From the NCBI GenBank assembly GCA_050273025.1, contig CP158635.1:15438001-15502000 (forward strand): a DNA stretch of 64,000 nucleotides. The letters are read 5' to 3'. The notes under the pieces are model-generated. The model was given only the letters and a program-made list of their open reading frames with translations. It did not search any database and had not been told where the DNA came from. The DNA comes from Cenococcum geophilum. Its lineage: Eukaryota. Below are positions 22,201 to 53,846 of this stretch, one piece after another. How positions within the stretch are numbered: position 1 is the stretch's first letter; each line of letters starts with the position of its first letter. The position numbers and the translations under genes are program-made.

Positions 22201-24091
22201 TCTATAGTGGAATTATCCTCTACCTTTTATATAACATCTCTAAGGTCTACGTGCTCCTAGTAAGCCGCCTTTATTGCCTTATCGTTATAAAGTGTTTTAC
22301 CTACGTTAAATTTATTGTCCTTAATGTCTAATCTATAAACTAGTTTATTAGTTCCTCTATACTTTGTAGATTTTAGCTCCTATAGCCAATAGCTTGCGCT
22401 GTACTTAGCGTCTTTATAAATTTAGTATATGTTATTATAGCAAAACGCAAAACTTCTAATTAAATATTCTTTTATTCCTTGTAGTACACTATTTTCCCTC
22501 TATACGTATATATCTTTTACTGTTAGTTAGGTTCCCTTTATTGCATAATATCTCTAACTATCTTTATAATCCCTTATAAAATAGCCTTATTTCCCGTAAT
22601 TTATATAAGCTCCTTCTTTAAACTATTAACTTTGCTATAGAGTCCGCCTAAACATCTTCTGCTGTTAAAATCCCTGGTTTAGCCTCTGCTCCTTAATTCT
22701 ATAATTACTAGATCCTTAACCTCTAAATTTTTATAGTTATTTACTCTATCTTTTATAGGCTTCTTTAGTACTACTTAGGTCTATTAGCTCTGCGTTATAC
22801 TATGGTTTCTAACTTAGCTTTAGTTGTTATATACTCTGCGCCTTATATAACTATAGAACTCTATCCTAGCCTCTCTTAGCCTGTTCCCTTTGGTAGATCT
22901 AATTATTAATCTTAATTACTTAATCTATTAGTTCCCTTAGGGTATCCGCATCTTCTATTAGGATAATTATATTCTGGACTTTAGCCTTAAGTCCTTATTT
23001 ATACTATACCATAAGCGCCCTATTATTCCACTTTATTTACGTTGCTAATGTCTAGAACTACGTTATGTATTTAATTGCTAAAGTTTATTACATAATATTT
23101 TAGAGTTTTTTTTTGCCGTAGTTGTCGCTTCCGGGTCTCTAAATATTTACATAAGTCGTTTTATAAATCCATTCTAGCTTAAGAACATAAACCGTACTTC
23201 TTGGTTTATAGTTGTTATTCCGTTTACCTAGATTTCTATAAGGTAAGGCTTAAACTACTTAAGTGCCCTTCCTGTTAAGAATAGTCCCGTATATGCTATT
23301 TAATCTATAGGCGTTGCTAGCTTGGCTCCTTCCTGCGCTACCTTAAAGTGTATTTACGTAAGGAATCCTTTAAGCTTTAATCTCTCTTCTAAGTATCTTT
23401 CGATCGATAGTAACTTAACCTTTGCTGCGCCTATCCTATTAATCCTATTTTCTAACGTTATATTATTTTCTATTAGCTAGTTAACTATCTCTTATAGTTA
23501 TCTAACCGTTATAGGTTGCTATAAGTTAGTATCTATTATACTAGTGTCGTTACCTAACCTTAAAGTAGTTGCCGCCGTTAATAGCGTTATAGCTGGTGCT
23601 TTTAGTGGCATATTATTTAACTTTCTATATTTAATACTATAACTAGGTAGTGATTATATAACGGAACCTTATAGTAAGAACTACGGTGGGTTTATTATTA
23701 GGCTAGGTGTATAAGAAATGCAAGTATAGAAGTTAACAACGTAATAATAATTAGTGGAGTAGTTGCCTAATAGATTAACTCTAATTATATTCTAAGAATT
23801 ACTATAAGGAAGGAACTATCTAGGTAGGGATTAAGGGTCCTTAAATATATAACCGTATTCCTATAAAATCCTTCTTATACGTAATGTACGTATACTTTAT
23901 CTACTCTATTATAGATTATATAGATTATATAGATTATATAGATTATATAGATTACGTTACATAACTTTAGTTACTATTCCTCGTTATATAGCTCTATTGG
24001 TTCTATCCTAGACTATACCTAAATTAACTAACTAGCTTCTTGTAACTCTTCTCTAAGTAGTTGTAATATTGTACTTAAAGCGTCCGTAATA
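16281..24091 (-). mobile_element. Gypsy/Ty3 chromovirus-type LTR retrotransposon, near full-length, RIP-inactivated (copy 1)
   Basis: LTRs 16281-16706 and 23657-24091; 5-bp TSD GATAG/GACAG. PPT (AGAGAGGGAGATAG on minus) abuts 16707. Degenerate minus-strand motifs: gag CCHC ~22600, protease ALIDS ~20570, RT AYLNNII (=YLDD) ~19740, integrase, and chromodomain-like T*EP ~17510. Confidence 0.93.
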
Positions 24092-25130
24092 GACAGGGGG
24101 AGGATATTTAAGAGAAGAACGGTAATGGGAAGGACTAGTACTACTACTGCTATTTTTATAAGTAATTAAAACGTTAATAGGAGCTTATAATTATCTTAAC
24201 TAAAAGAACTACTGCCCTAGATTACCTTTATAATAATTATAATATAAATAGAACTATAGGTAAGCTTAATTAAGAAGGTCCTTAATCCTTAAACTAACTA
24301 ACGATTGCATAATATCTATATAAAAGGTCGCTTAATTTAAATCGCAATTTCCAGATCTTTAAGGACTTACTTATTTAATGGATTATCTACTACTATATTA
24401 CCTTCTTTTAATTTAAGAATATCTACTTCTATTAGCTTCTAAACTTCCTATATTTTAGCCTTAATAGATTTTTACTAAATATAGGTAATATAATTCGCGG
24501 CTAGGTTACCAACGCCTTTATAAATAGGAAGAATTAGTTAAGGATAGAGCTGTATAACGCCCTTAGCGCTATATTAATATCCTTTAATCTTTAAACGTTA
24601 CTAAACGCCTATATAATTCTTAGTGTTATTACCTACTTTATTAATAAGTAAAAAAGGCGGCGGAACGTAGTTCTAGGGCTTTATAAGATTATTAGTAAAT
24701 ATACTAGTAAAAATATAGCGGCTATTCTGCTTAAGGTGTTTAAGGACTATATAATTAGCGGTAATATTAGATATTTTATAGCTAATAACGTGGACTTAAA
24801 TAATACCTATATAGATGTAATCCTTTAAGCCTTATATTTAGATATATCGTTAAAGAAATAAAAGGCTCGTTATCTTCGCTGCTTTAGCTATATTATTAAC
24901 CTCTATATATAGGCTTTTATTATAGGGAAGGACGTAAAGAAGGTCTATAAGGAGCTAGCAACTACCTATCGCGAAATAGATTTTAAGAAGGTAGATAAGC
25001 TTTAGAAGAAGCGCGGGGCGGTTAGATTAATACATAACCTTATTTAATATATTTAAAACGGCCCTTAGTATCGCGGCTTCTTTAGAAGGATTAAGATAGG
25101 TAGTTTCTTAGCAGAATTTAATGGCTTAGA

Positions 25131-25257
25131 TATTAGGTGACAAAGTCACCTCGCCTATATATATTGTTCCGCACAGCCGTGTCTGGTATCAAGCTAGTCA
25201 CTCGTTTACCTTTTATGGGTTTGTGTGGCTAAGTGGTACGGAGCTTATCACCTCACA
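25131..25257. mobile_element. Solo LTR (127 bp) inside the hAT transposase
   Basis: Ends TATTAGGTGA...TCACCTCACA (TG>TA by RIP), flanked by 5-bp TSD TTAGA. Confidence 0.8.
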
Positions 25258-26119
25258 TTAGAGCTAAGTTTATTAGATTTTTTACTATAGTAGAACTGCG
25301 GAGGCTCTCTAATTAGCTGCGGTAGTAGATTATCTTTAATCCTATTCTAACGACTTTAAAATCGCCTAGTTTTTTTTAACCATTTTCCTATATCGCGACT
25401 TTTTTAGAATTATTTGGTAGAATATTAGAGGCGCTCTAATTAGCTTCTTTAGTAATTATATTAGCCTAGTCGTAATATTTATATCTATGTCTTATTTATT
25501 AAAAGCGATACTAATTATTTTATAGCTTATTTAAAATAATTAAATGCATTAGAACTCGCTTTTCTTAGCTATATCTTGCTTTCTTAATTATAAGGAATAA
25601 ATTTAGAAGTTTTATACTAACTATATACCCCCCCTAAACTTAAAAAAGCTTACTAGCGACAATAAACTTAAGCCGCGCTACTAGTAAGAGCTTTTATATT
25701 TATATAATTACCTTAAGACGTTCTATAAGGCTACTCTTATAGTAGAAGGTAATAATACTAGCTTTACCAATTATTTCTAGATACTTAATTAGCTACTACT
25801 TAAGCTTAAAAAGTTAAAGAATAAGTTTCTTTAGCTCTAAGTTAATAAACCAAGGTCTCCTTAAGTAAAGAATTTTTACTACTTAGCTAGCTACACGGAG
25901 GAAGTATAGCAGAAGGCTAAAAAGTACTATAATAAGGCGGATAAAACGGCAGCTTATTACATAGTAATCGTTCTAAATCTAACTCTTAAGATATAGTAGT
26001 TTAGGCTAGAATAGGGTTCTTATAAAGTAAAGAAGACGTAAATCTCTACAGTTAAGTAGGTAGTAAGGGAGCTTTAGGTTAAATATAAAAGTAAAGGCAA
26101 GCGTTAATTATCCTTAGTA

Positions 26120-26231
26120 GGGCTTCATAAAATCGGCCTCTACACCTCCACGCGGTAGAGCCCAGGAACCTGGCAGTACTATTGATATTCCGTTAGGATC
26201 GTATCAATAGACTACCAGAGCAAACGCAGAG
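26120..26231 (+). ncRNA. Putative HDV-like self-cleaving ribozyme (RIP-damaged)
   Basis: P1 GGGCTTC(26120-26126)/AGAGCCC(26157-26163); P2 CTCTAC(26138-26143)/GCAGAG(26226-26231); P3 ACC/GGT around L3 TCCACGC; GG at 26165-26166 for P1.1; P4 hairpin 26170-26218; J4/2 AGCAAAC with candidate catalytic C26221. Confidence 0.7.
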
Positions 26232-27137
26232 ACGTCCGTACGGCTGCGCACCGCTGGCGCTACAACGGGTGATCGCGAAGAAAGAAGTTTCTATTAGGAG
26301 GGTGAGCCCCAATAAGGCTTCAGGAACACGACCAACTTATCTTCACATACAGTCGACCTGCTCGAATCACGGCATCTAAATTGGCGTCCTCCTTCTACAC
26401 AGCATAGCATGCTATACTGCACGACCCTATATAGTATATACGTACCCTTATAGGCTAAAGCCCGCAATAAGCCTCTTTATCTACCTACCTTCCAAAAGCC
26501 TCTCGTCTATTACCTTTTAAGGCCTCTTATCTACCCGCCTTTATTATTACCTAATAGCTTAGACTTACCGCACGCGGTATATATCCTCCTTTATATTATA
26601 AAGGACTTAGGTTAGGGCCCTAGGAGAAGACACCTAGCACCAATTACTATCCTATTATTTTAGTTTTAAAAAAGGTCATATAGGACTGTCTATCTCTCGC
26701 ACGGCACGAACAGGTCATAGTCCATTTCAAATATATCGATTGTGGGGGGTGTAGGCCTATAGGGCGGGATCCAGGCGATATCCTAGTGTTTATAAGGCTT
26801 TTTAGGCCTAAACTTTAGAGATCTGGCCTGAATCCTACCTAGTGCCCCTAATGGAATAGCCCGCCGCTAGACCTAAACAGGACTATAAGTAACTAATCTA
26901 ATATACATTATAAGGGAGGTAGGTAGGTAAAAAGAATAACCTATTAAGTGCAGTTGCAAGCGATAATGTTATTAACTATATTGAATATTTAGTTGAATAC
27001 CTAAGTTGCAGGGTTTTCGGCCAAGTAATGTATAGACACGTGATATCTATCTCTCGTATGGCATAAATAGGTTATAGTCCATTTCAAATATATTAATTGT
27101 GGGGGGTATAGGCCTATAGGGCGGGATCTAGGCGATA

Positions 27138-27331
27138 TGTAAGCTTTGCAGTGTGTGGGAATTAAACGAGCGACTTAATTGTAAATCTATGGAAATCAAG
27201 TGGTATAAATACATGAAAGTAGACCCCTAACTCCAAAGCCCATAAGTCATTTAAACCATATCCAAGACATACGAGGGTAGTGCTAACGCAGATGAAACAG
27301 GGTAATATACAAGGTCCGGTAGTCGGTTACA
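27138..27331. mobile_element. Solo LTR (194 bp) inside the Ngaro B1 repeat
   Basis: TGTAA...TTACA ends and 5-bp TSD CGATA. Removing it restores colinearity with the B2 repeat. Confidence 0.88.
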
Positions 27332-27567
27332 CGATATCTTAGCGTTTATAAGGCTTTTTAGGCCTAAACTTTAGAGATCTGGCCTAAATTCTACCTGGTG
27401 CCCACTAGCGAAGCGCCTACTACCCATAAAGAATTGAGTTAAAAACTGGAGCGATTTCCGCAGTATAAACTGTGTAATGAAATTAAGATATTATATAAGG
27501 AAAGAAGGTAAGGAAACAGGAAGAATAGATATATATTATTAACTTGGTTGCTTAGTTAACCATAGTC

Positions 27568-27856
27568 CTGGTAGAGTTTAGTAGACTTGGTAGAATTTAG
27601 CAGAATTCGGCAGCTTTAGTAGAATTTTATAGAATTTGGCAGACTTGGCAGAATTTGGCAGAATTTGGTAGAATTTGGTAGACTTGGCAGAATTAGGCAG
27701 AGTTTAGTAGAATTTGGTAGACTTAACAGAACTTAGCAGAGGTTACGGATATTACTAATATTGTAGATATTGTAAATATAGGATAATCTTGCGGTGGTAG
27801 GCAGAATATAGCAGAATATAGCAGAATGCGGTAGATTGCGGCAAAATGCGGCAGGT
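27568..27856. repeat. Degenerate 9-10 bp minisatellite (GGCAGAATTT-like) in the Ngaro 3' region
   Basis: Many tandem copies with RIP-type variants are seen directly. Confidence 0.85.
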
Positions 27857-30800
27857 AGCGTGTGTAAGGTATTATGGAATAGTCCCGTAACAGAAAGTAT
27901 AGAGTCCCTATATTAGGCTTCCCTAGCTAGTATAGGCATACTCCGCTAGAAATATAAGTTTAATTAAAGTCGTTTAGTTTCTAAGGTGTTGTAATAAAGT
28001 TTTACTATATTTAATGTCCATCGACCTAACTACGCCGTTTATGACTCTGTAAAGCCACAGTTATACGTATACTACGCTATACCCCTACGGAAAAAGTGGT
28101 TAGAGTAGCCGTTAGGTAAAATGCCGCTAGTAGCTAGGCGGGTTAATAGAATCTTACGTACTACTAGCGCCGAAAATGCTTTATTATTAATGCTAAATAA
28201 TAGATCTAATAGAGGCCGGGGGTTACGGTTAAATAACCGTATTATTACGGCTATGGGGCATAGACGATCTCCTAGTACAGCGGCGATCTGGATATTAACG
28301 CCACTATAGGTTTTGTCTAACTTGCTCTGTTTTAGGTAAAAGACTATTAAATAGCTATTAGGGGCGATCCTAATATTATTACGGAGGGCCCTTATAGTGC
28401 TAAAGTCCTTAGCTTTCTTATTTAGGTATATAATTTCTCCTATACGTAGGAAACCTATAAACGCCATTGTAAATGCCGCATCTATATTTATATCCGCTTT
28501 ATAGGGTAGAGGTAATAATCTTATCTAAGATGTCCTTTATAATTAGTAGTTTGGTCTTTTTAGTAAATGGGAATAATAATATAGCCCCCGCTAGGGCCCT
28601 TTTAATAGTATAGTCTTTAAAGGTGGTAATTAAATAACCTAGGTTTATATAATAAGATCAGATTACGGAAATATAGTTAGAGAGGGTTTCTGGCTTAATC
28701 CTGCCTATTAAAGGGGCGGCTGTACTAAACGCTTATTAGGCAATCCACTCCCCTAAGTTTATCCTCTTAGCTAGATATGGTAATAAACTATTTAGGGCTA
28801 AGAAGGCCTCCCAGCTCTTAATAGCGGAGGAGTAGCCTTTCCTTATATTGGCTGCTAAGCCATACTATATAAGTAGTAAAAAGTAATAAGACCTACTGAT
28901 TTTACTCCAGAAGGTTAGGGGGGGTTAATTAAACAACTCTGGGTTAACTGTAAGAGTTAGCAGCCACTTAGAGGAGAGGTATTATTTTTCTAGTAAGAAG
29001 CCTTTATTTATCCGGTAAGAAGCTATTATTTATCCAGTAAGAAGCCGTTATTTATCTAGTAAGAAGCTATTATTTATTTGCCACTTAGGGCACAGTAATA
29101 ATAATTTCTTGCGGTTAAATCGCGAAAGAGTATTAGTAAGCCTATTATTGGCGCTAGAGACCTATATAGTTATTATAGTAATATTATTTGTTATTAAGGA
29201 TATAAGTATCTCTTAGAGTAATTAGTTTTTAGAACCTTTTATAATATTATTTTAGATACCGCTGTAAGTAACTATATTATCTGTATAAATATAAAGAAAT
29301 CTATATCGCCAGACCAATAACTACTTTTTAAATGCCTTCGCAATAGCATGTATCTCTTTTAGGTTAATATAGTTATCCGCCTAGTCTAGTAGGGGATAAT
29401 AGCTGAAGGCCTAGGCCTAGGGTAGGGAAGCCGCGTAATTAGGCTAGTGGCCGTTCTCTCTACTAAAGTAGAAGCCTCTATAGCCTTTAAGTGATAAGGC
29501 GTTGGTAAATAAGTGAAACTGCGGCCTTTTCTTGTTATTAAAGAATAGTATACTGTTACTTAATATAAGAACCTCAAGCCAGAGGTTAAGGTCTTCTTTT
29601 AGCTCTAGGGGGAGGCGCTAGGGTATATGTCTTGATAACCTAGTAGGCCATTTTGTTATAAAGGCTTATAAGGAGTAAGAGTACGAGTGCCTAAGGTGGA
29701 TAACTCTTGTATACTATGCTAGGCGGCCCACCAGTTATTAGGTTTGCTGTAATAATAGCTAGCCCTTTTAGAGGGCTTCGGTTACCTAATTAATAGCTTT
29801 CTATTACTTAGCTAGTAAGAGTTTTATCTCCATTGCTATGGTGTTAATAGTATAACCTAATACTTTAGCCTCCGTACCCTTAATATTCTTAGCATTATTT
29901 TAGGGTACCCCTAGCTAGTTAGTAACCAAGAGGTATACCTCCCTTAGTGACGGTAGTATAGTTAGACACTTGACCACAAATATAAAATTATTAAGGTAGT
30001 GCTTAATAGCGGAATTAATCTATTATGCTAGGATTTAATAAAGACCTTCGGCGAATAAGTTAAAAAGAAATAGGGCTATTCGTAAGCTAAATGGTAGAGA
30101 GCATTTAACGTATATAACTCCCTTCTAGATAAAGCCGAGTAGGTAACGCGACCGCACTAAAACGGGCACTATCCGGAAGGCATCTTTAATGTCTCGTTTA
30201 ACTAGGTAGCAGCCTCTACTAGCTGTAATTATATATGCTAGTATAGTCTCTATTTGGGTATAGTGTAGTACTGCCTAGGCTAGGTTGATAGAGTTATTGA
30301 CTAAGAAGCCCTTGGGTGAAGAGAGGTTGTAAATACGGTAGAAGTTACTATCTGCCTTAGGCACTAGGCCTAGGGGTAAGGTAACTATAGAGTTGGTGGC
30401 CTATATACGGCCTAGGGCTAGGTTAATAATAATCTTTTTTAAGATAAGGTCTTCGTTATCGTGTAAGGAGAGGTGGTTTTTATAGATATTAGGTAGTATA
30501 GGTAACAAGGGACCTATCTCCGCCCTATAGGTAAGGATGCCTTATAAAATTACTAGGAGATTTCTAGGGTACTTATAAAGGAGCGTGCTCCAAGCAAGAG
30601 GTCTTAAAGGTAATAGTAAATTAGCTAGTAAAGTTATTTATAAGTAAGTTTTAAAAAGGGGTACTAAATTAGGCCTGCCTTAGAGCCTTAGCGTCTATGG
30701 TAGGTCTATCTAGATAGTTAAACCTAGGAAGACGTCTTTATTTACCATTAAATCCTAGGTTTAACTACTTATAGTAGTAAGCTACCTAGGGCACGACTTT

Positions 30801-32583
30801 AATAGGTGGTTTTTGTTATATTTAGAGTATGCGTGGCGGTAATAATATAGATCTTCTCTATAAGCCTACTAGTTATTCTAGCTATAACAGGGCTTACTAG
30901 AGGGGAGGGGAGGGGAGGTATTCTTTTGCGATCTTTTTAATGCTATACCACGGACTTTAAGTCCCTAGCTCTATACCTTTATATTAGCTGCCTGGCAGTA
31001 TAGGGCCTTAAACTAGGTAGGTATGTCCTAGTTACTAGGCTTAAGCTAATTGCGATCTATAATATACCTATAGTAGTTAAGCGCGAGGTCTAGGATGGAG
31101 GTCCAGTTATAGGTTGCGGAGTAGTCGCGGATCTTATTTATCTAGAGCAATATTCTTATATGGAGGTTAGTTGGGCATATATAGAGAGTGCTTACGATTA
31201 CTATGTAGTTTATAAATCCAGTAAACTAGACCTCCTTATTCTCGTAGACCTTGCGGCTAATAGTAGGTCTCTTTAAAATAAGCTTTCCGTTTTCAATAGT
31301 AGCCATATTAGAAAGGTCTGGGCGGCTAGAGTATACCTATAAACGTACTAGGTTCTTTAGGCGGAAGGATCCTTTCCATATATTATAGAGGTCTCTTTTA
31401 GCTAGGCTAGGGAGGTTAAGCTTAAGCGTGCCTGAGCCTTCCGGTAGGTTATAGGACTTACCTAGTTTATCTGCCTTAGTAGTAGAGGTATACTCTAGTG
31501 GAGTAGGCTGCTTTAGAGCGGCTAGCCTTGCCTAGTAAAACTCCTCTTTCTATTCCGTCTTTTAGATCTATGCCTATTTCTTCTACTCTCTCTTTCGGAT
31601 CTCTAGGTTATGGAGTTATTAGGCCCTCTTGTCTTATTTTCTAGCTCTTTCTTCTAAAGATAAAACCATAGTATATTTGGTAGATGGGATGGTAGTAGAT
31701 AAGGAGGTAGATAATAGGGTGGTTGAGCGAGGAGTTTTCGACCGGGTGCTATTGGCTAGAAAGTCGGTTATGGGCCTTAATAAATTATCGCCACTAGGAA
31801 CACTAATCGTAAGCAATCTATGATAAAAAGAACGACCTATTGAGTGCAGTTGTAAGCGATGATGTTGTTAACTGTGTTGAACATCTAGTTGAATACCTAA
31901 GTTGCAGGGTTTTCGGCTAAGCAATGTATAGACACGTAATAGATATAAATGCATTATATAGAAGGGCAGTGGATTATACTAGAAGGTATAATAATAAGAT
32001 TGGATTATGCTGTAAGTAGGGAAGCTATAAGTAGTATACGTGTATACATATAGGGCGGAGTAGGGAAAGGGCAGGTATATAATTCTACATAGGCAATAAT
32101 AGATAGGGAAAGTGGTTTAAAAGGCAGATAGGGCAAGACAGGCATTCGAGACACCTTCCTTAGGGGTCTCTAAGCAGTAACCTAACAATGTTTTTCCCCC
32201 CGTTGATGTAGTACAAATGCTATCTAAAAGTATTACCTCTCACGTTTCCCTTAGGGGTTTTTTATTCACCCAAAAAATGGGTTTTTCTCAGTATATATAT
32301 TGAGTTTTTACCATAGGAATTAGTCTGCGTGGACCCATTAGGGGGACTGGGTTAGACGGTAAATTAAATCTATTATTAATTATCCTTAGTAGTAGATTAC
32401 TTACCTTAACCTACACTACTATAGATAAAGGATAAGACTTATACTTCTGCTTATAATTATAAACGCCTTAAGATTATATACAAAGCTAATGTTGCCGCTA
32501 AGGTATAAGAGGTTAATCCTTTTAACGACTATATTAGCATAAATTATATATTACTTAAACAGGATAAGCAATTTAATACTATA

Positions 32584-32751
32584 TGTCAGGGCACTAAACA
32601 GGCTGATGGAATAATACATATAATACTCTATAAGGAAGAATCTCAGGGGCTCAAAGGCCCCGAGAAGATATCTACACAATGGCCCGCGCGCTGTCACGTG
32701 ACACGTCGCCGAGCTCAAAGAGACTGCCCAAGTACCCCCCCCCCACCAACA
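32584..32751 (-). mobile_element. Solo LTR (168 bp) of the Copia family whose 5' LTR is at 47052-47220
   Basis: TG..CA ends and 5-bp TSD CTATA. It is the near-identical reverse complement of 47052-47220. Confidence 0.92.
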
Positions 32752-33425
32752 CTATATAATATTAGTATAATCGCCTTACTACCTAACCCGAGCTCGCTTA
32801 ATTCGCCCTTAATATTCTTACTATTCCACCTATATCTAATAACTATGAACAACTATTTAGTAGCGCTAAAATCCTCCTTAAAGATCGTTGTTCTTAGTTA
32901 CGGATAGATATAATTAAGGCAAATACGTGTCTTCGCTACTTATATAGGCCTCCGCAGAAGGGTACATTTAATAATAAGGACGTTGGTAAGGTAGAAGGAG
33001 AGCCTTAGCTAGATAGGATATCGCCATCATAGGCCTTAAGGCTTCGTGTTACTGCGTATGAGAAGGCGTAGGCGGAGGTAGCGGCAGTTTACTTAATAAG
33101 GGAAGATGAAGATAATAATGAAGATAAGGGTGAGGGTAAGGACGAGGCATTGGAGGTGGAGTTCGCTACTATTGAGGCGATTCTTAATTAAGGCAACGAT
33201 ACTAATGATGGCGATAAGGAAGGAGAGGTTAATAAGGACAATAAGTAGAGAATCTAATTTAATATTGGTAATATTTGCCACCTTTACCTTAACCTCCTTA
33301 ACACTATATTTATGCTAAGACTTACTATTTATAGTATATATTTGCTTCGGAGCTTCAGCTTTTGATAGGCTAGTGGGGTGGATTTGAGCCCAGATCCAGT
33401 CCAGTCCAGTCCAAAAAGATCACTG

Positions 33426-34339
33426 GTCAAACGCATATCACGACATTAGCGGCATACAGGCGCGCAATGCCACTGCGCTTCTGGCTCACGGGTATCACTG
33501 GGATGAGAGAGCGGAGTACTATGTCAAGATTCCTTCGATTGAGCAGCCCGAAGCGCAAGGAGCTGGTTCAGTCTTTAGTAGCGTAAATGACTACGCCAAA
33601 TGGATACGAGCATTGATCAAACGCACTGACCATCTTCCTTTGGCTGCGCATAAGGAGCTGGTAAACCAACGGGCTATCATGCACGAAGAGGAAGGAGACA
33701 GGATACCTTTCTATAGTCAGGCCCTGTATGCGCTTGGCTTGGTGGTTGAGCCTTACCGCAGCCTCACGGTGATTGGGCATGGCCGCGTCCCCCGGATTCA
33801 ATAGCTTGATGCGATATCTACCAGAATTAGAGTTGGGCATTGCTATCTTTGGAAACTCGAATGGAGCCGGGGACATCGCGGAAATTTTATGCTGGCATCT
33901 AATCGACGGGCTATTGAGCGTACCTACGCCAGAGCGGCTGGACTGGACCGCACTTCAACGTGAGTATCATGAGAAGTCCAAGCAAGAAGAAAAGAATCGT
34001 TTGCAATCTAAGCCGCTAGAACCTGAGTTCGCAATGAGTGTGCCTCTTTTGCAGTATGCGGGCAAGTATCAAAATGTTAGCTATCATGATCTTATTCTTG
34101 AGGTTAAAGACGGGAAACTTTGGGCAGATTGTTCGGTCCGGAATTTCGGTTTTGTATTGTCGTTCGACCACGTATATGGAGATACCTTTGTTGTCGAGAT
34201 ACGTGACTTTTTGGATGATAGTAAGAGAAACGTGGGAGCCGAATTTCAGCTTGGTGTGTTAGGGGAGGTAGAGTCTTTAGGTATGGAATTTGTAGAGTAG
34301 ATGAAGGCAGAAATGATATGATTCACGAAGGTCGAGTAA
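33426..34339 (+). pseudogene. Beta-lactamase/AmpC-like serine hydrolase, 3' half with C-terminal extension
   Basis: Continues in frame from the 5' half (MSN|AYHDISG..QPEAQGAGSVFSSVNDYAKW..VIGHG). Frameshift at ~33790 and premature stops at 34298 and 34319. Confidence 0.88.
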
Positions 34340-34864
34340 AGTCTCTGCCAGGTGACTATTTGACTATTCGCGCGGTTTGGTCTGATTCAGAAAGCAATCT
34401 TGAAGCTGTTTAGAGAGTAATGAAGCGTACTCCTGTATCTAGTGCGCTTCTCCTCGACACCCATCATTTAGGTTGACCCCGGCCCCAAGATCTTCTCCAC
34501 AGGCCACCATTAATGTCAAGCTTTAATTCTTACTGCCTTGTCACATTAAAACTAGAATGAACTCGCAACTTGTAGAAACAAACCATCTTGCGCTCAAACT
34601 TGTCAGCTCTATTCATCCATTCCACCTGTTTGTCATTGCGACTCCTGTTTCAACTTCCGAATGGCAAGGTCGCTTCTGGCCGCGCTAATACCTCAGCTTG
34701 ACGCCTCCAATAATGTACACGGCCCACATGGTAGCTGTGAAATACTTGCGAGTCTGCAGAGCCCCTCATGACCGGTATCGAGTTTCTTCTTTCACCTGGT
34801 CAATTCACCTTTATCATTGGTTCTCCTATTTTTCTTCAAGTACTTGTTTTCTATACAGATCGGC

Positions 34865-51200: not shown

Positions 51201-53846
51201 TTATAGTAAGCGTTCGCTAGTTACGCTCCGCGACTCCGTTCTATTTAGGTAAGTTAGCGCAAGAGAATTTAAGCTTAATGCTATAAGAGGTAAACCAGTT
51301 CTTTATAAGCCAGTTATCTAATTCGCCGTTATTAGATTAAACCCTTTTAAGAGGGCTAAGTTGCTTTTCTAACTAGGCAATATAGTTTTTAATAATGTCT
51401 TAAACGCTATAAGCCTCTTTTAACCTAAGGAAACGGACCTCCATTTATCTAGTATAGTTATTAGTAAAAGTAATAGCGTACTTAAGCCTTTAATGCCGAC
51501 TAGCGTAAGATAGATAATATTAATATAAACCAGTTCGCTTGCAGCTATAGCACGCTATTAAGGGCCGTAATTAAATAATTTATGCCTTTTTAAGATGGCA
51601 TAGGTTTTACAGTTAAATGGATTAGTAAGAAGTCCTAAACATCTTATATTTATAAAGTTTAGGTAGCTAAGTTTTTTATATTACTGCTAAGAGTTATAAT
51701 CTAAGCCTATTAGTAAGAGAGTAGTGTATAGATCGTTTGGTTTATTAAGGCGGTAAAGTCCTCTCTATATAAAGAAGTACGCTAGTTTTGTTTTGTCCCT
51801 AGTACGTAGAAAGCAGTCTGTAGTATTAATAGTTATCCTATCTCTTTGGCAGGTAGAGCTAGATATAAGGTTAATAAAGAGGTCTAGAATATAGAGCACG
51901 TTGCGGAGTTTAAGTACGTTATTACCCTACGGTAAAGATGTAACGACGTTAACGTCGCTGTACCTAGTAGCGTAGGTAATGCCGGTGGCGGAGTTAACTT
52001 TAATCTTACATCCTTAAAAGTTCTTAAAAAGCTTGCGATCCTTATAAGTATAGTATATTACTCTAGTGTTGAAATACCATCCATTTAATTGAGAATTTAC
52101 TGTGTTATAAAGTATGAGGATCCTTTTATGGTTATTTAAGAAGTCGGTTAGTTAATTGTCGCTTTAGTTAGGTAGAGGAGTTTTATTTTAGGCAAGGCGC
52201 CTTTTCTTACTCTTAGGTTTACTAGTAGATGTCTTTATAGCCCTATAGTTGCAAGTCTAGTAATTAAGTAACTTGTGAAAATTGCACCATTTTTTATTAG
52301 GTATAGCGGTAGGTGCTATATAAGATTAATTTAGGAGTGGCTGAGCGCCTAGTAACATTACGGACGGCTTATTATTAACTAGTTGATAAGCTTCCTTATA
52401 GAGTTTAAGGCTAAGGAGTTCTATAATAAGATCGTTAAGAGCAGAAGGCGTGTTCTCTTTATAACTAGGCGTAATTTTGCTATTATGGAAGTTCTAATAG
52501 TAATCACCTAAGTTATAAAGAAAGATACCAGTTATCTAAGTATCCGTTACCCTGTTTTGTATAGGCCTAGTATAAGTTAGATTTAAGCAAGGTATTTCCT
52601 TAAAAAGTTGCTTTATCTGTTTAGCAGCAGCTTTATATTTAGTGTAATATTCTTTAAGGGAGTTACCTAAATGCGTGTTAATAAGCGCCTTAAGTCTAAG
52701 GTGGTAAGAGACCTAGCCGACTTTTATATATAGTCCCTTAAGTATTTCCTAGGCATACTTCGCCGTTTGGTTTTTAATATATAATTAGAGTTTAAGGCTA
52801 ACCGATTCGTATATTAACTAGAAGGCTTAAGATTCCCTAAGAGTATACTTTTCTTTATCTTTTAAAGAGGCGTTATTGGCTGGAGTAGTTGCTTCGCCGG
52901 TAATATACTTCCAGAGCACTCTTAAATAAAGCTTATAGCGTTTTTTAGTAGACTATAAGAGGTAGTTGTTTTGGCCTTTAAGGATAATGCTAAGACGTTT
53001 CTTATTGGTAGGAGTTTCTAATATAGTAAAAGAGACAATTAGTATATGGGTTAAGAGATAAGGATAAAGTGGTAATAATCCTCTTTAAGGATGAAGACTT
53101 TCTAATAGTTATAGCTTATCCGTCTTAGTATAGTCGTTATCCAATTAACCACTAGGAAGAAGGCCGTTGGAAGTTAACGTGAATATAAAGGGGTCGCTAA
53201 GGCGCTAGTAGTAAGCAAGCTAATAGCGATTTTCTATCCTGGGGATGGAAAATCCTAATTGGTTAGTATAAGTCAGGGTCCGCAAAATATAGCAGAGTTT
53301 AGCAGGTGACGCGCCCTAGCGCTGTTATAATTTGGTGTTAGTTAACTACTAATAAGTATCCTTTGAGTTATTGCAATCGATGGGCCTTTTTTAGGGTGTA
53401 TTAGATGCCCTATAGCTTAAAGACTTGTAAAGCGGATAGCTTATAAGGCAGGTAGCTCGTAAGGCAGACAGCTCGTGAGGTAGCTCGTAAGGTAAGTTGC
53501 TTATGAGGCTGGTAGCTTATAAGAACGAGGCTTAAGCTTATAAAAGCTAAGGAGCAAGTAATGTACGTTAAAAGGAGTTAAGGTTTAAACGTGTTTTTTG
53601 TACTAATTCAAGTCTTAAGGTATAAGGACGCTAGAGGGCGTGTTTAACTCAAAAAACTAATAATAAAAAGGCGTGAATTGCGTTAAGCAGACCGGGCTTA
53701 TAACCTGTTGAACGCGCAGGTTAAGGCAAGCGTGATTGCAGAATATCAAGTGTAAGAAGTGGTTGATTAAACTATCTGAGTAGGAGGTTGAGATAAAAGG
53801 TTGACGACAACCGAGTCACGTGATATAATATCGGGTGAAAATAACA
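48238..53846 (-). mobile_element. Copia/Ty1 element B, full-length, RIP-inactivated
   Basis: 141-bp LTRs 48238-48378 and 53706-53846; TSD TATTA. PBS GGTTATAAGCCC and PPT AAGGGGGAG on minus. Motifs GLYGLKQSP, VYVNNI (=YVDD) and ADALTKP. Confidence 0.93.

Follow-up and report, generated by a model that had tools for sequence, protein, structure and literature searches.

In ribozymes of the HDV-like class, cleavage takes place directly upstream of P1, whose first nucleotide is usually a G. The catalytic cytosine lies in J4/2, and cytosines of L3 pair with the two G residues that follow P1, forming P1.1. Retroposons with such ribozymes at their 5' ends are documented in metazoans other than insects. 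Within the insects they have been described for R2 and the R2 SIDEs (PMC3414825), and within the trypanosomatids for L1Tc and NARTc (PMC3185411). The R2 SIDEs of Drosophila are presented as non-coding, short internally deleted elements with a 5' HDV-like ribozyme, which defines the 5' end of the RNA by self-cleaving a co-transcript (Eickbush & Eickbush 2012, PMC3414825). In NARTc and L1Tc of Trypanosoma cruzi, and in the related RIME/ingi and Leishmania SIDER, the first nucleotides are said to form an HDV-like ribozyme that cleaves at +1, and the head is common to several element families (PMC3185411). The list of features that defines the class, including the helix order P1, P2, P3, P1', P1.1, P4, P2', is the one customary in the field, with support from PMC8256844. 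A full-text literature search returned no description of an HDV-like ribozyme in a fungal retroelement.

In the window, that is, the whole 64,000-nucleotide stretch of Cenococcum geophilum DNA analysed here, positions 26120-32375 lie between two exact copies of a direct repeat, 16 bp long and extended by one ambiguous G. At its full 17 nt this repeat, TTAATTATCCTTAGTAG, is exact at both 26104-26120 and 32376-32392, and dinucleotide shuffles of 25500-33000 contained an exact direct repeat of at least 17 nt in 2 of 200 cases. As comparison with the family places the first base of the element at G 26120, the true duplication is 16 bp (26104-26119 and 32376-32391), with the seventeenth matching G due to chance; the earlier note on this DNA was right about the repeat and one base too generous about the duplication. 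When the 5,253-bp insert is removed, the remainder is 569 + 434 = 1,003 bp of non-coding sequence (26120-26688 plus 31942-32375), in agreement with the ~570 and ~435 bp estimated previously. The parts of the locus are as follows.

26104..26119, plus strand: left 16-bp target-site duplication TTAATTATCCTTAGTA (exact repeat, empty site, family duplications)
26120..26231, plus strand: predicted HDV-like ribozyme fold (family alignment A1, pair counts, core conservation, weak Rfam drz-agam-1 match)
26232..26688, plus strand: non-coding body, 5' half (conservation profile, no ORF, no Pfam domain in the least-degraded relatives)
26689..31941, minus strand: nested tyrosine-recombinase-type (Ngaro/DIRS-like) retroelement, separate from the retroposon (split direct repeats, joint 26688/31942)
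31942..32322, plus strand: non-coding body, 3' half (family alignment, conservation profile)
32323..32357, plus strand: conserved 3' hairpin, the presumed reverse transcriptase recognition site (26-copy alignment, consensus fold)
32358..32375, plus strand: 3' tail GGTAAATTAAATCTATTA, ending in TTA/CTA (family alignment)
32376..32391, plus strand: right 16-bp target-site duplication (exact repeat, empty site, family duplications)

The explanation that we consider best overall, and hold with good confidence, is that the window contains one copy, altered by RIP, of a non-coding non-LTR retroposon of ~1 kb, non-autonomous and with two conserved modules, and that this copy inserted into a hAT-like repeat and was later split. 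The uninterrupted ~1-kb copies with differing target-site duplications that had been predicted for such an element are found both in contigs and in metagenome loci. In public contigs from the DNA runs X1, X5 and X6, 26103 is followed directly by 32376 and the repeat occurs once, as in an empty site; the X1 contig departs from the window sequence at 6 of 121 and 18 of 161 positions, and thus represents a paralogue of the host repeat. The direct joint from 26688 to 31942 is present in two contigs of X1, two of X6, none of X5 and eight reads of the RNA run X21, and metagenome copies run continuously through the same point.

Scanning the metagenomes with the head pattern yielded at least 120 loci, a collection in which 5'-truncated copies are invisible. 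About 25 of the copies in the loci listed are complete, with lengths of 736-1,066 bp, and a further one of 1,162 bp is bounded by target-site duplications. Continuous copies of 1,003 bp occur in these loci, and two of them (L059 and L062, with 91% and 90% identity to the window copy) show 0 transversions over 1,002 aligned bases, so that every difference is a RIP-type transition. Flanking repeats scoring at least 10 (10-17 bp, all different) accompany 15 of the 26 complete copies listed, as against 2 of 650 mismatched flank pairs, and three more copies (L010, L035, L050) have duplications of 14-15 bp. In all scored cases a single base separates the upstream repeat from GGCT; this base, the first of P1, is a G in 82 of the 98 heads, and the duplications end directly before it. 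Flanks and duplications differ from copy to copy, and are AT-rich and situated in repeat or genic DNA. Variable target-site duplications of this kind are those of a non-LTR retroposon, inserted by target-primed reverse transcription. Across the subfamilies of 736-1,162 bp, conservation is strongest in the first 150 and the last 200 nt, and the 5' half of the body (26232-26688) varies more among subfamilies than either end.

The fold of the head was threaded by hand on the window copy, and its pairs were then counted on 98 sequences. P1 pairs 26120-26126 with 26157-26163, P2 pairs 26138-26143 with 26226-26231, and P3 pairs 26144-26146 with 26154-26156; L3 spans 26147-26153, P1.1 pairs 26148-26149 with 26164-26165, P4 occupies 26170-26218, and J4/2 (26219-26225) holds the presumed catalytic C, predicted at 26221. 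The head therefore combines a 7-bp P1 beginning at base 1, a 3-bp P3, a 7-nt L3 with CC, the GG for P1.1, the C of J4/2 and a P2 that closes the knot. In the window copy this fold is degraded by G-to-A changes at 26142 (P2), 26157 (P1) and 26164 (P1.1). A G at each of these positions was predicted from the fold before the family was seen, and the positions were left as R in the search pattern; the A of the window copy is a G in most family copies. The helix mismatches of the window copy are thus RIP-type G-to-A changes, reversed in the majority of the family.

The fold stands at the start of every copy collected. Over the 98 sequences, the nested double pseudoknot (P1, P2, P3, P1', P1.1, P4, P2') pairs in 93.5% of 3,819 cells, compared with 30.9-41.5% in controls with the partners slid by 1-3 columns, a contrast that is inflated because the structure was derived from these same sequences. 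Compensatory changes number 71 cells versus 30.3 +/- 3.5 in shuffles, none of 500 of which reached 71, and the underlying variation consists mostly of RIP transitions, which can yield G-U and A-U exchanges without selection. Within P4, one pair is GC in 57 cases, AU in 21 and GU in 9, while another is AU in 63 and GC in 29. The presumed catalytic C of J4/2, at a position outside the search pattern, is found in 91 of 98 heads, and it is accompanied by an intact P1/P1.1/P2/P3 core in 53. The two pairs of P1.1 form in 98 and 68 of the 98, within a pattern that fixes C and G and leaves one position as R. The search pattern fixed or limited alignment columns 26-55, which partly forces the invariance seen in P3, L3, the 3' strand of P1 and part of P1.1; independent support for the fold comes from the 5' strand of P1, P4, J4/2 and the 3' strand of P2. 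The modelled head has the nested double pseudoknot order, the J4/2 cytosine and the P1.1 of the HDV-like class, and its G-first P1 and the ends of the duplications would fit an RNA that starts at the predicted cleavage site.

The closest Rfam family, drz-agam-1, matches the window copy at 15 bits (E 3.6), with the match beginning at 26121, the second base of the element, and matches the intact L049 copy at 21.1 bits, still under the gathering score of 37. By that score the head is not a member of RF01787 or its relatives, and the other Rfam ribozyme families gave no match at E up to 10. A model built from alignment A1 matches 26115-26248 at 155 bits, as it must by construction, the window copy being in A1. 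A strict descriptor of the fold did not recover the mutated window copy, and a search of the prokaryote genome collection with the 30-nt head pattern gave 0 matches. The ribozyme head proposed in the earlier note is upheld as an HDV-like fold by the family alignment, the Rfam match being weak.

At the other end of the element, the 3' stem-loop and tail that had been noticed in the single copy (32323-32357, followed by the tail) are kept in 26 of 26 aligned copies; the single-sequence fold of the hairpin, at z -1.35, is weak alone. The tail is expanded to (CTA)n in some copies, and two of them (L029, L054) have CTA repeats between tail and duplication. The last ~200 nt are part of the conserved 3' module, and three T5-T6 runs within them are conserved.

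Neither half of the window copy has a stop-to-stop ORF of at least 80 aa, the longest frame of the element has no conserved ATG, and three little-mutated copies (L049, L076, L070) have no Pfam domains. No terminal inverted repeat or long direct repeat linking the two ends appears in the repeat listing, ARAGORN reported 0 tRNA genes, and the 5S, 7SL and snRNA families of Rfam gave no match at E up to 10. The account of a non-coding, non-autonomous retroposon with no ORF, TIR or LTR and no tRNA or 5S head is borne out by these results together with the variable duplications. The label SINE/SIDER-like needs dividing: a SINE in the strict sense, with a tRNA, 7SL or 5S head and an internal Pol III promoter, this is not, and R2 SIDEs and NARTc are its nearest counterparts. 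In X21, RNA depth with the first mate on the minus strand is 435-461 in the left half and 114-148 in the right half, with 2-9 on the other strand, which means RNA of the sense strand, provided that the library was made in the usual stranded way. Of the 4,902 RNA reads, 3,739 are less than 90% alike and 4,517 overlap the stretch only in part; they come from diverged relatives in another strain. The listing for these reads shows no accumulation of RNA ends at 26120. Two named hypothetical proteins of Zopfia rhizophila start with a translation of the ribozyme P4-P2 region.

The insert that splits the window copy (26689-31941, 5,253 bp, minus strand) is RIP-degraded, has no target-site duplication at its ends (26688/31942) and contains split direct repeats (D2, D4, D5). 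Its RVT_1 match is weak (E 3.7e-4, 20.7 bits, below cut-off), its recombinase-like motifs were noticed by eye only, and its 76%-identical intact relative gave no Pfam recombinase match and no significant PDB match (Cre at E 0.9). The name Ngaro applied to it earlier holds loosely, through the split repeats and the weak RVT_1 match, but a match to the recombinase family is missing.

On this evidence, the family is a genuine non-autonomous non-LTR retroposon headed by an HDV-like fold, a new fungal representative of the R2-SIDE/NARTc kind. We propose that it would be transcribed within a longer upstream transcript, with no promoter of its own ahead of the fold. Its first module, the initial ~112 nt, may fold as an HDV-like self-cleaving ribozyme, which would cut directly 5' of its own first G and release an RNA that starts at the first base of the element and retains the whole ribozyme. 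The second module, the last ~200 nt, closes in the conserved hairpin and TTA/CTA-type tail, and this 3' end may be recognised by a LINE reverse transcriptase supplied in trans. That enzyme would nick AT-rich DNA and prime on the tail, where slippage could generate (CTA)n, and would copy the RNA up to the ribozyme-defined 5' end. At this locus, on this account, target-primed reverse transcription into the hAT-like repeat produced the 16-bp duplication, and the tyrosine-recombinase retroelement later split the copy.

A reading that we take seriously, while leaning against it, is that the element was shortened by internal deletion from an unseen autonomous LINE with the same ribozyme and 3' end, as in the R2-SIDE model, and is not a free-standing composite dependent on an unrelated LINE's enzyme. 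Such an origin is the one described for known SIDEs and NARTc (PMC3414825; PMC3185411), and conserved ends around a middle that differs between subfamilies are expected if only the ends matter. However, the autonomous LINE sharing both ends that the earlier note anticipated is found neither in the 64-kb window nor in 370 kb of related loci (~430 kb in all). None of 23 heads in loci longer than 4 kb, about 15 with more than 3 kb downstream, is followed by a long element, the duplication-bounded copies listed are all 736-1,162 bp, and the 370 kb contain no 3' end without a head; that no longer protein shares the 5' reading frame is weak evidence in the same direction. A non-cleaving fold, with the 5' end set by transcription initiation and the structure acting as internal promoter or protein-binding site, seems improbable to us: cleavage here is a prediction, the Rfam scores are sub-threshold and Pr77 of L1Tc is described as promoter and ribozyme both (PMC3185411), yet the full HDV-like feature set is present, P4 covaries, and the boundaries of the copies coincide with the predicted cleavage site.

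We regard a Pol III SINE with an unrecognised head as highly unlikely. The element is short, non-coding and high-copy, with duplications, as a SINE would be, but it matches no tRNA, 5S or 7SL, its ~1 kb is long for a SINE, and it has the three conserved T5-T6 runs at a distance of 60-115 nt from its 3' end. Such runs would halt Pol III ahead of the 3' hairpin. Scarcely credible is the remaining suggestion, for which only adjacency in this window speaks, that the flanks are the true termini of the tyrosine-recombinase element or that the 17-mer was duplicated within the hAT-like host repeat. It had been asked whether the flanks are always attached to the Ngaro-like element, and whether other hAT copies carry both 17-bp repeats. 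Neither is the case: uninterrupted copies without the insert, in contigs and metagenome, refute the former, and paralogous host copies with a single 17-mer and no element refute the latter.

If cleavage of the retroposon RNA is confirmed, the strategy of ribozyme-headed retroposons would reach into the fungi, and structure-function studies would gain a small natural ribozyme that comes in many sequence variants. Cleavage would also explain the persistence of a promoter-less element in a RIP-active genome, and would supply an annotation signature for a family otherwise recorded as 'unknown' or mis-called as protein. A broader joint reading, which we offer tentatively and consider doubtful, is that filamentous ascomycetes harbour an undescribed, abundant class of retroposons made of two portable RNA modules (an HDV-like ribozyme that makes the 5' end, and a 3' hairpin with tail). 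Such elements would have no sequence-related autonomous parent, rely on read-through transcription and the enzyme of an unrelated LINE (for example of Tad1 type), have spread across Dothideomycetes, and form part of the 'unclassified' repeats and of the spurious gene models that start inside the ribozyme.

Of the known systems, the best Rfam match of the fungal head, the Anopheles HDV-like ribozyme drz-agam-1 (RF01787), has the same P3-L3-P3' core ACCUCCNCGNGGU, begins P1 with the same GGCU and follows the same overall helix order, but the Rfam alignment puts P4 and P2 in other places. With R2 SIDEs the fungal element would have in common its non-coding nature, a ribozyme 5' end, a 3' end recognised in trans, and target-primed reverse transcription. 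R2 SIDEs, as described, insert at a specific site in rDNA and have both ends in common with known R2 or R1 partners, whereas the fungal element, in a filamentous ascomycete host, is not inserted site-specifically in 28S rDNA but is dispersed in AT-rich DNA with duplications of 10-17 bp. Like NARTc, it is a dispersed non-autonomous retroposon with an HDV-like fold at its first nucleotides, cleavage being predicted here. The tail of NARTc is poly(A). The Pr77 ribozyme is 77 nt and its sequence is common to the autonomous L1Tc; in contrast, the fungal fold takes up ~112 nt and has a long P4 that covaries, the element ends in a hairpin and TTA/CTA tail, and no autonomous relative was found in ~430 kb. 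Stringent-type LINE/SINE pairs, such as UnaL2/UnaSINE1 of eel, have a conserved 3' stem-loop and a short repeat tail that can be expanded by slippage, and SINEs of the UnaSINE1 type have tRNA-derived Pol III heads. The fungal element resembles this pair in its 3' hairpin and repeat tail, and differs from it in being headed by an HDV-like fold.

The two non-coding flanks at 26120–26688 and 31942–32375 are one element, and the direct repeat that encloses them is its target-site duplication. The parts of the locus are as follows.

26104–26120 and 32376–32392: TTAATTATCCTTAGTAG, 17 nt, exact at both places
26120–26688 and 31942–32375, plus strand: the retroposon, 1,003 bp
26689–31941, minus strand: a separate element lying between the repeats
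about 32772–32936, plus strand, just downstream: weak match to the hAT C-terminal dimerisation domain (E 0.004, 17.3 bits, below the cut-off)

An exact direct repeat of at least 17 nt arises anywhere in 25500–33000 in 2 of 200 dinucleotide shuffles. Three public DNA runs (X1, X5 and X6) and one public RNA run (X21) were compared with 25600–32900. Each of the three DNA runs has contigs in which 26103 is followed directly by 32376 and the repeat is present once. The one from X1 shows 6 differences from the window in 121 positions and 18 in 161, which marks it as a paralogous copy of the host repeat that lacks the insertion. The halves of the element also occur directly joined, with 26688 running straight into 31942 in two contigs each of X1 and X6 (none in X5) and in eight RNA reads of X21. 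The earlier note had named two findings that would speak against a retroposon, flanks always attached to the nested element and other hAT copies already holding both 17-mers; the 26688–31942 joints show flanks free of the nested element, and the paralogous host copies carry one 17-mer. There is no second copy of the element within the 64-kb window.

The DNA around the element is AT-rich, with a strong RIP-type dinucleotide bias (TpA/ApT 1.5–1.8). The hAT match and the retroposon share a strand: the host is a hAT-like transposase remnant, and the retroposon reads in its sense direction. Other copies of this host repeat lack 173–177 bp at 32576–32754 (joints in X1, X5 and X6), which is an indel polymorphism among its paralogues. 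A gene neighbouring the element resembles an ascomycete one, which we take as a lead only.

The boundaries can be refined by comparison among copies. Among 26 complete copies (the window's and others from the matches listed), flanking repeats reach a score of at least 10 in 15; these repeats are 10–17 bp long, AT-rich and no two alike, while mismatched flank pairs used as a control scored as high in 2 of 650 cases. Three further copies among the matches listed have duplications of 14–15 bp, and the rest have none or degraded ones only. The upstream repeat stops one base before GGCT in every scored case among these matches, and the base preceding GGCT is G in 82 of the 98 heads listed, so that the element starts at 26120 with GGGCU, which leaves a duplication of 16 bp in the window. 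The 17-bp duplication of the earlier note therefore stands as an exact repeat flanking the element, but loses one base, G 26120, to the element itself. At the other end, the element terminates in CTATTA or CTACTA, with (CTA)n between tail and duplication in two copies, and the duplications usually start with T(T/A)A (both among the matches listed); reverse transcription may prime on the short-repeat tail at an AT-rich nick.

To find the wider family, metagenome contigs were scanned with a 30-nt head pattern, with R in place of A and Y in place of T so that RIP-mutated heads would still match. This identified at least 120 loci, and the same pattern had no match in a collection of prokaryote genomes. 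BLAST of both window halves against the loci revealed continuous, insert-free copies. Two copies of 1,003 bp, L059 and L062, show 91% and 90% identity with the window copy; transversions are absent over the 1,002 aligned bases, and RIP-type transitions are the sole differences. Other subfamilies among the matches listed measure 736–1,066 bp, with one copy of 1,162 bp. Conservation across subfamilies peaks over ~150 nt at the 5' end and ~200 nt at the 3' end, with purine/pyrimidine identity of 0.91–1.00 there (0.87 in one 3' bin) versus 0.78–0.91 in the middle. Individual loci have histories of their own. In one copy (L002:33-3388), ~2.8 kb of foreign sequence separates element position 216 from position 225, a different site from that of the nested insertion in the window. 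Another (L029:2386-3263) has (CTA)5-6 before the duplication, a ribozyme broken within P4 and an inverted partial head at 2769–2885; either a rearrangement or the nesting of a second copy may account for this. Ordinary genes lie within a few kb of the copies L041:1795-2994 (PIG-P, E 6.6e-46) and L030:1048-1869 (AMP-binding enzyme, E 1.1e-35), which places the family outside RIP-degraded repeat islands as well.

The conserved 5' end is predicted to adopt an HDV-like ribozyme topology, which we threaded by hand on the window copy.

HDV-like topology threaded by hand on the window copy
26120–26126 with 26157–26163: P1
26138–26143 with 26226–26231: P2
26144–26146 with 26154–26156: P3
26147–26153: L3, 7 nt, UCCACGC
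26148–26149 with 26164–26165: P1.1, the CC of L3 with the two bases after P1
26170–26218: P4, long
26219–26225: J4/2, with C at 26221

This copy has defects: C faces A in P1, in P2 and in P4, and the first position of P1.1 holds an A. All were predicted to be G-to-A changes made by RIP. The family majority is G at 26142, 26157 and 26164, positions that the search pattern had left as R; at the fourth defect, in the P4 pair of columns 63/114, 71 of 98 copies lack pairing. In the alignment of 98 sequences from the matches listed, 93.5% of 3,819 cells are paired, versus 30.9–41.5% when partners are slid by 1–3 columns. Changes on both sides of a pair affect 71 cells (30.3 +/- 3.5 in shuffles, with 0 of 500 reaching 71) and 9 pairs (5.8 +/- 1.2; 8 of 500), while further pair types are no better than in shuffles (235 of 500). 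These counts are to be read with the search pattern having constrained alignment columns 26–55, the structure having been derived from the same 98 sequences, and transitions being common through RIP. Covariation is found chiefly in P4, where one pair is GC in 57, AU in 21 and GU in 9 sequences, and another AU in 63 and GC in 29. Among the matches listed, the C of J4/2 is kept in 91 of 98 heads, and 53 of 98, the window copy not being one of them, combine it with an intact P1/P1.1/P2/P3 core.

The relevant Rfam match is drz-agam-1 alone, at 15 bits for the window copy and 21.1 bits for the intact copy L049; it covers the whole model from the element's second base, but falls short of the gathering score of 37 that Rfam membership takes. 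This match emerges only in a search of a short stretch: Rfam over 24000–34500 at E up to 1 returned nothing but a chance viral pseudoknot match within the insert. A strict HDV descriptor, which the mutated copy fails, had no match in the window and 2 in 100 shuffles, and is uninformative on this copy. The single-sequence fold of the head, which is unable to show pseudoknots, is weak alone (z -2.38). R1, a covariance model built from the head alignment, found no second head in the window, its runner-up at 53509–53605 (15.4 bits) being unlike a ribozyme by eye. Applied to 40 of the at least 120 loci, R1 added three degraded heads and nothing more, and covariance-model search of the window and these 40 loci gave no other head type.

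The last ~60 nt are near-invariant in the 26 copies from the matches listed, and comprise an imperfect ~14-bp hairpin (32323–32357 in the window) followed by GGUAAAUURAAUYUAYUA. Hairpin variation in these copies is mostly G-U wobble, with four pairs changed on both sides, and the single-sequence fold is weak alone (z -1.35). Neither a tRNA nor a match to 5S, 7SL or snRNA was found in the element. Runs of T terminate Pol III transcription, and the three conserved T5–T6 runs upstream of the hairpin argue against transcription of the whole unit by Pol III. In X21, which carries another strain label, first mates on the minus strand reach a depth of 435–461 over the left half and 114–148 over the right, versus 2–9 on the opposite strand; if the library follows the usual stranded chemistry, the RNA comes from the sense strand. 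The reads are mostly less than 90% alike and alignable in part only, which indicates diverged relatives as their source, and no 5'-end pile-up at 26120 is listed.

The least-mutated copies have an open frame of 160–184 aa, beginning without a start codon. We rejected this frame as a gene: its only ATG falls on a covarying P4 position (among the matches listed, 63 of 98 copies have A there and 29 have G), three little-mutated copies gave no Pfam family, and its 71 database "homologues" are short unnamed metagenome calls plus two hypothetical proteins. A search for longer proteins sharing the 5' frame found none. Neither window half has an ORF of at least 80 aa. The two hypothetical proteins (P0062 and P0069) are source-named Zopfia rhizophila CBS 207.26, and translation of the ribozyme region P4-J4/2-P2 gives their N-termini (MFHxDRVNRLPEQTQRRVYG...). 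This suggests related heads in this Dothideomycete that were mis-annotated as genes, and both proteins are likely to be gene-model artefacts marking related elements in its genome.

The element nested at 26689–31941 had been called Ngaro in the earlier note. It does have split direct repeats of the kind found in Ngaro/PAT-type tyrosine-recombinase retroelements (families D2, D4 and D5), but its RVT_1 match is below the cut-off (E 3.7e-4, 20.7 bits), an intact relative, 76% identical, gave no Pfam family and matched Cre at E 0.9, and its recombinase-like motifs were recognised by eye only. The label is, on these sequence features, plausible but not proven. The RVT_1 match came from a 233-aa piece; long read-through translations overlooked even this reverse transcriptase. 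Inside the second copy of the split repeat lies a 193-bp insertion (27139–27331) with the 5-bp GATAT at both sides. Its DNA word depth is ~9x that of the rest of the recombinase element (in X1, ~81,000 versus ~9,000). Positions 27138 and 27218 are points of divergence for many contigs, RNA reads cover the insertion on both strands with 27 molecules starting at 27157, and Rfam at E up to 1 gave no match to it. The insertion is probably a short repeat in its own right, present at very high copy number. The recombinase element also holds an array of ~10-nt units resembling TTGGCAGAAT (27568–27740), parts of which are skipped or repeated in contigs of other copies, so that array length varies between copies.

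The autonomous LINE with shared ends that the earlier note predicted did not appear in ~430 kb, a scope that makes its absence a weak negative. In loci longer than 4 kb, no ORF of at least 200 aa follows any of 23 heads, with a few ORFs of 150–198 aa, and every bounded copy among the matches listed is ~1.2 kb or less. All 12 ORFs of at least 220 aa in the loci lack a reverse transcriptase or endonuclease, the matches being PIG-P, AMP-binding and a weak MULE. The heads of L044 and L058, in which similarity fades after 160–350 nt, were considered as LINE starts and rejected, having no Pfam family (three frames, stops read as X) and no ORF. The 3' module does not occur without a head in the loci; two "tails without heads" from a fuzzy 3'-tail search were spurious AT-rich matches.

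A minimal HDV-like ribozyme has reportedly been seen once in a Trichoderma genome. In the literature searched, we found no case of an HDV-like ribozyme in a fungal retroelement. Passages of a 2026 study (PMC12910237) describe a TE-rich, RIP-active ectomycorrhizal Dothideomycete genome in which Tad1 LINEs are abundant and unclassified TEs are put at 17.8%, and these passages make no mention of ribozymes. In its design the element would resemble the R2 SIDEs, as portrayed in the abstract of PMC3414825, with an HDV-like ribozyme at the 5' end, a body without coding capacity, a 3' recognition end and target-primed reverse transcription. The same design is common to NARTc/L1Tc in passages of PMC3185411. 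What appears to be new is a fungal example of this already known design, its ribozyme being predicted from sequence.
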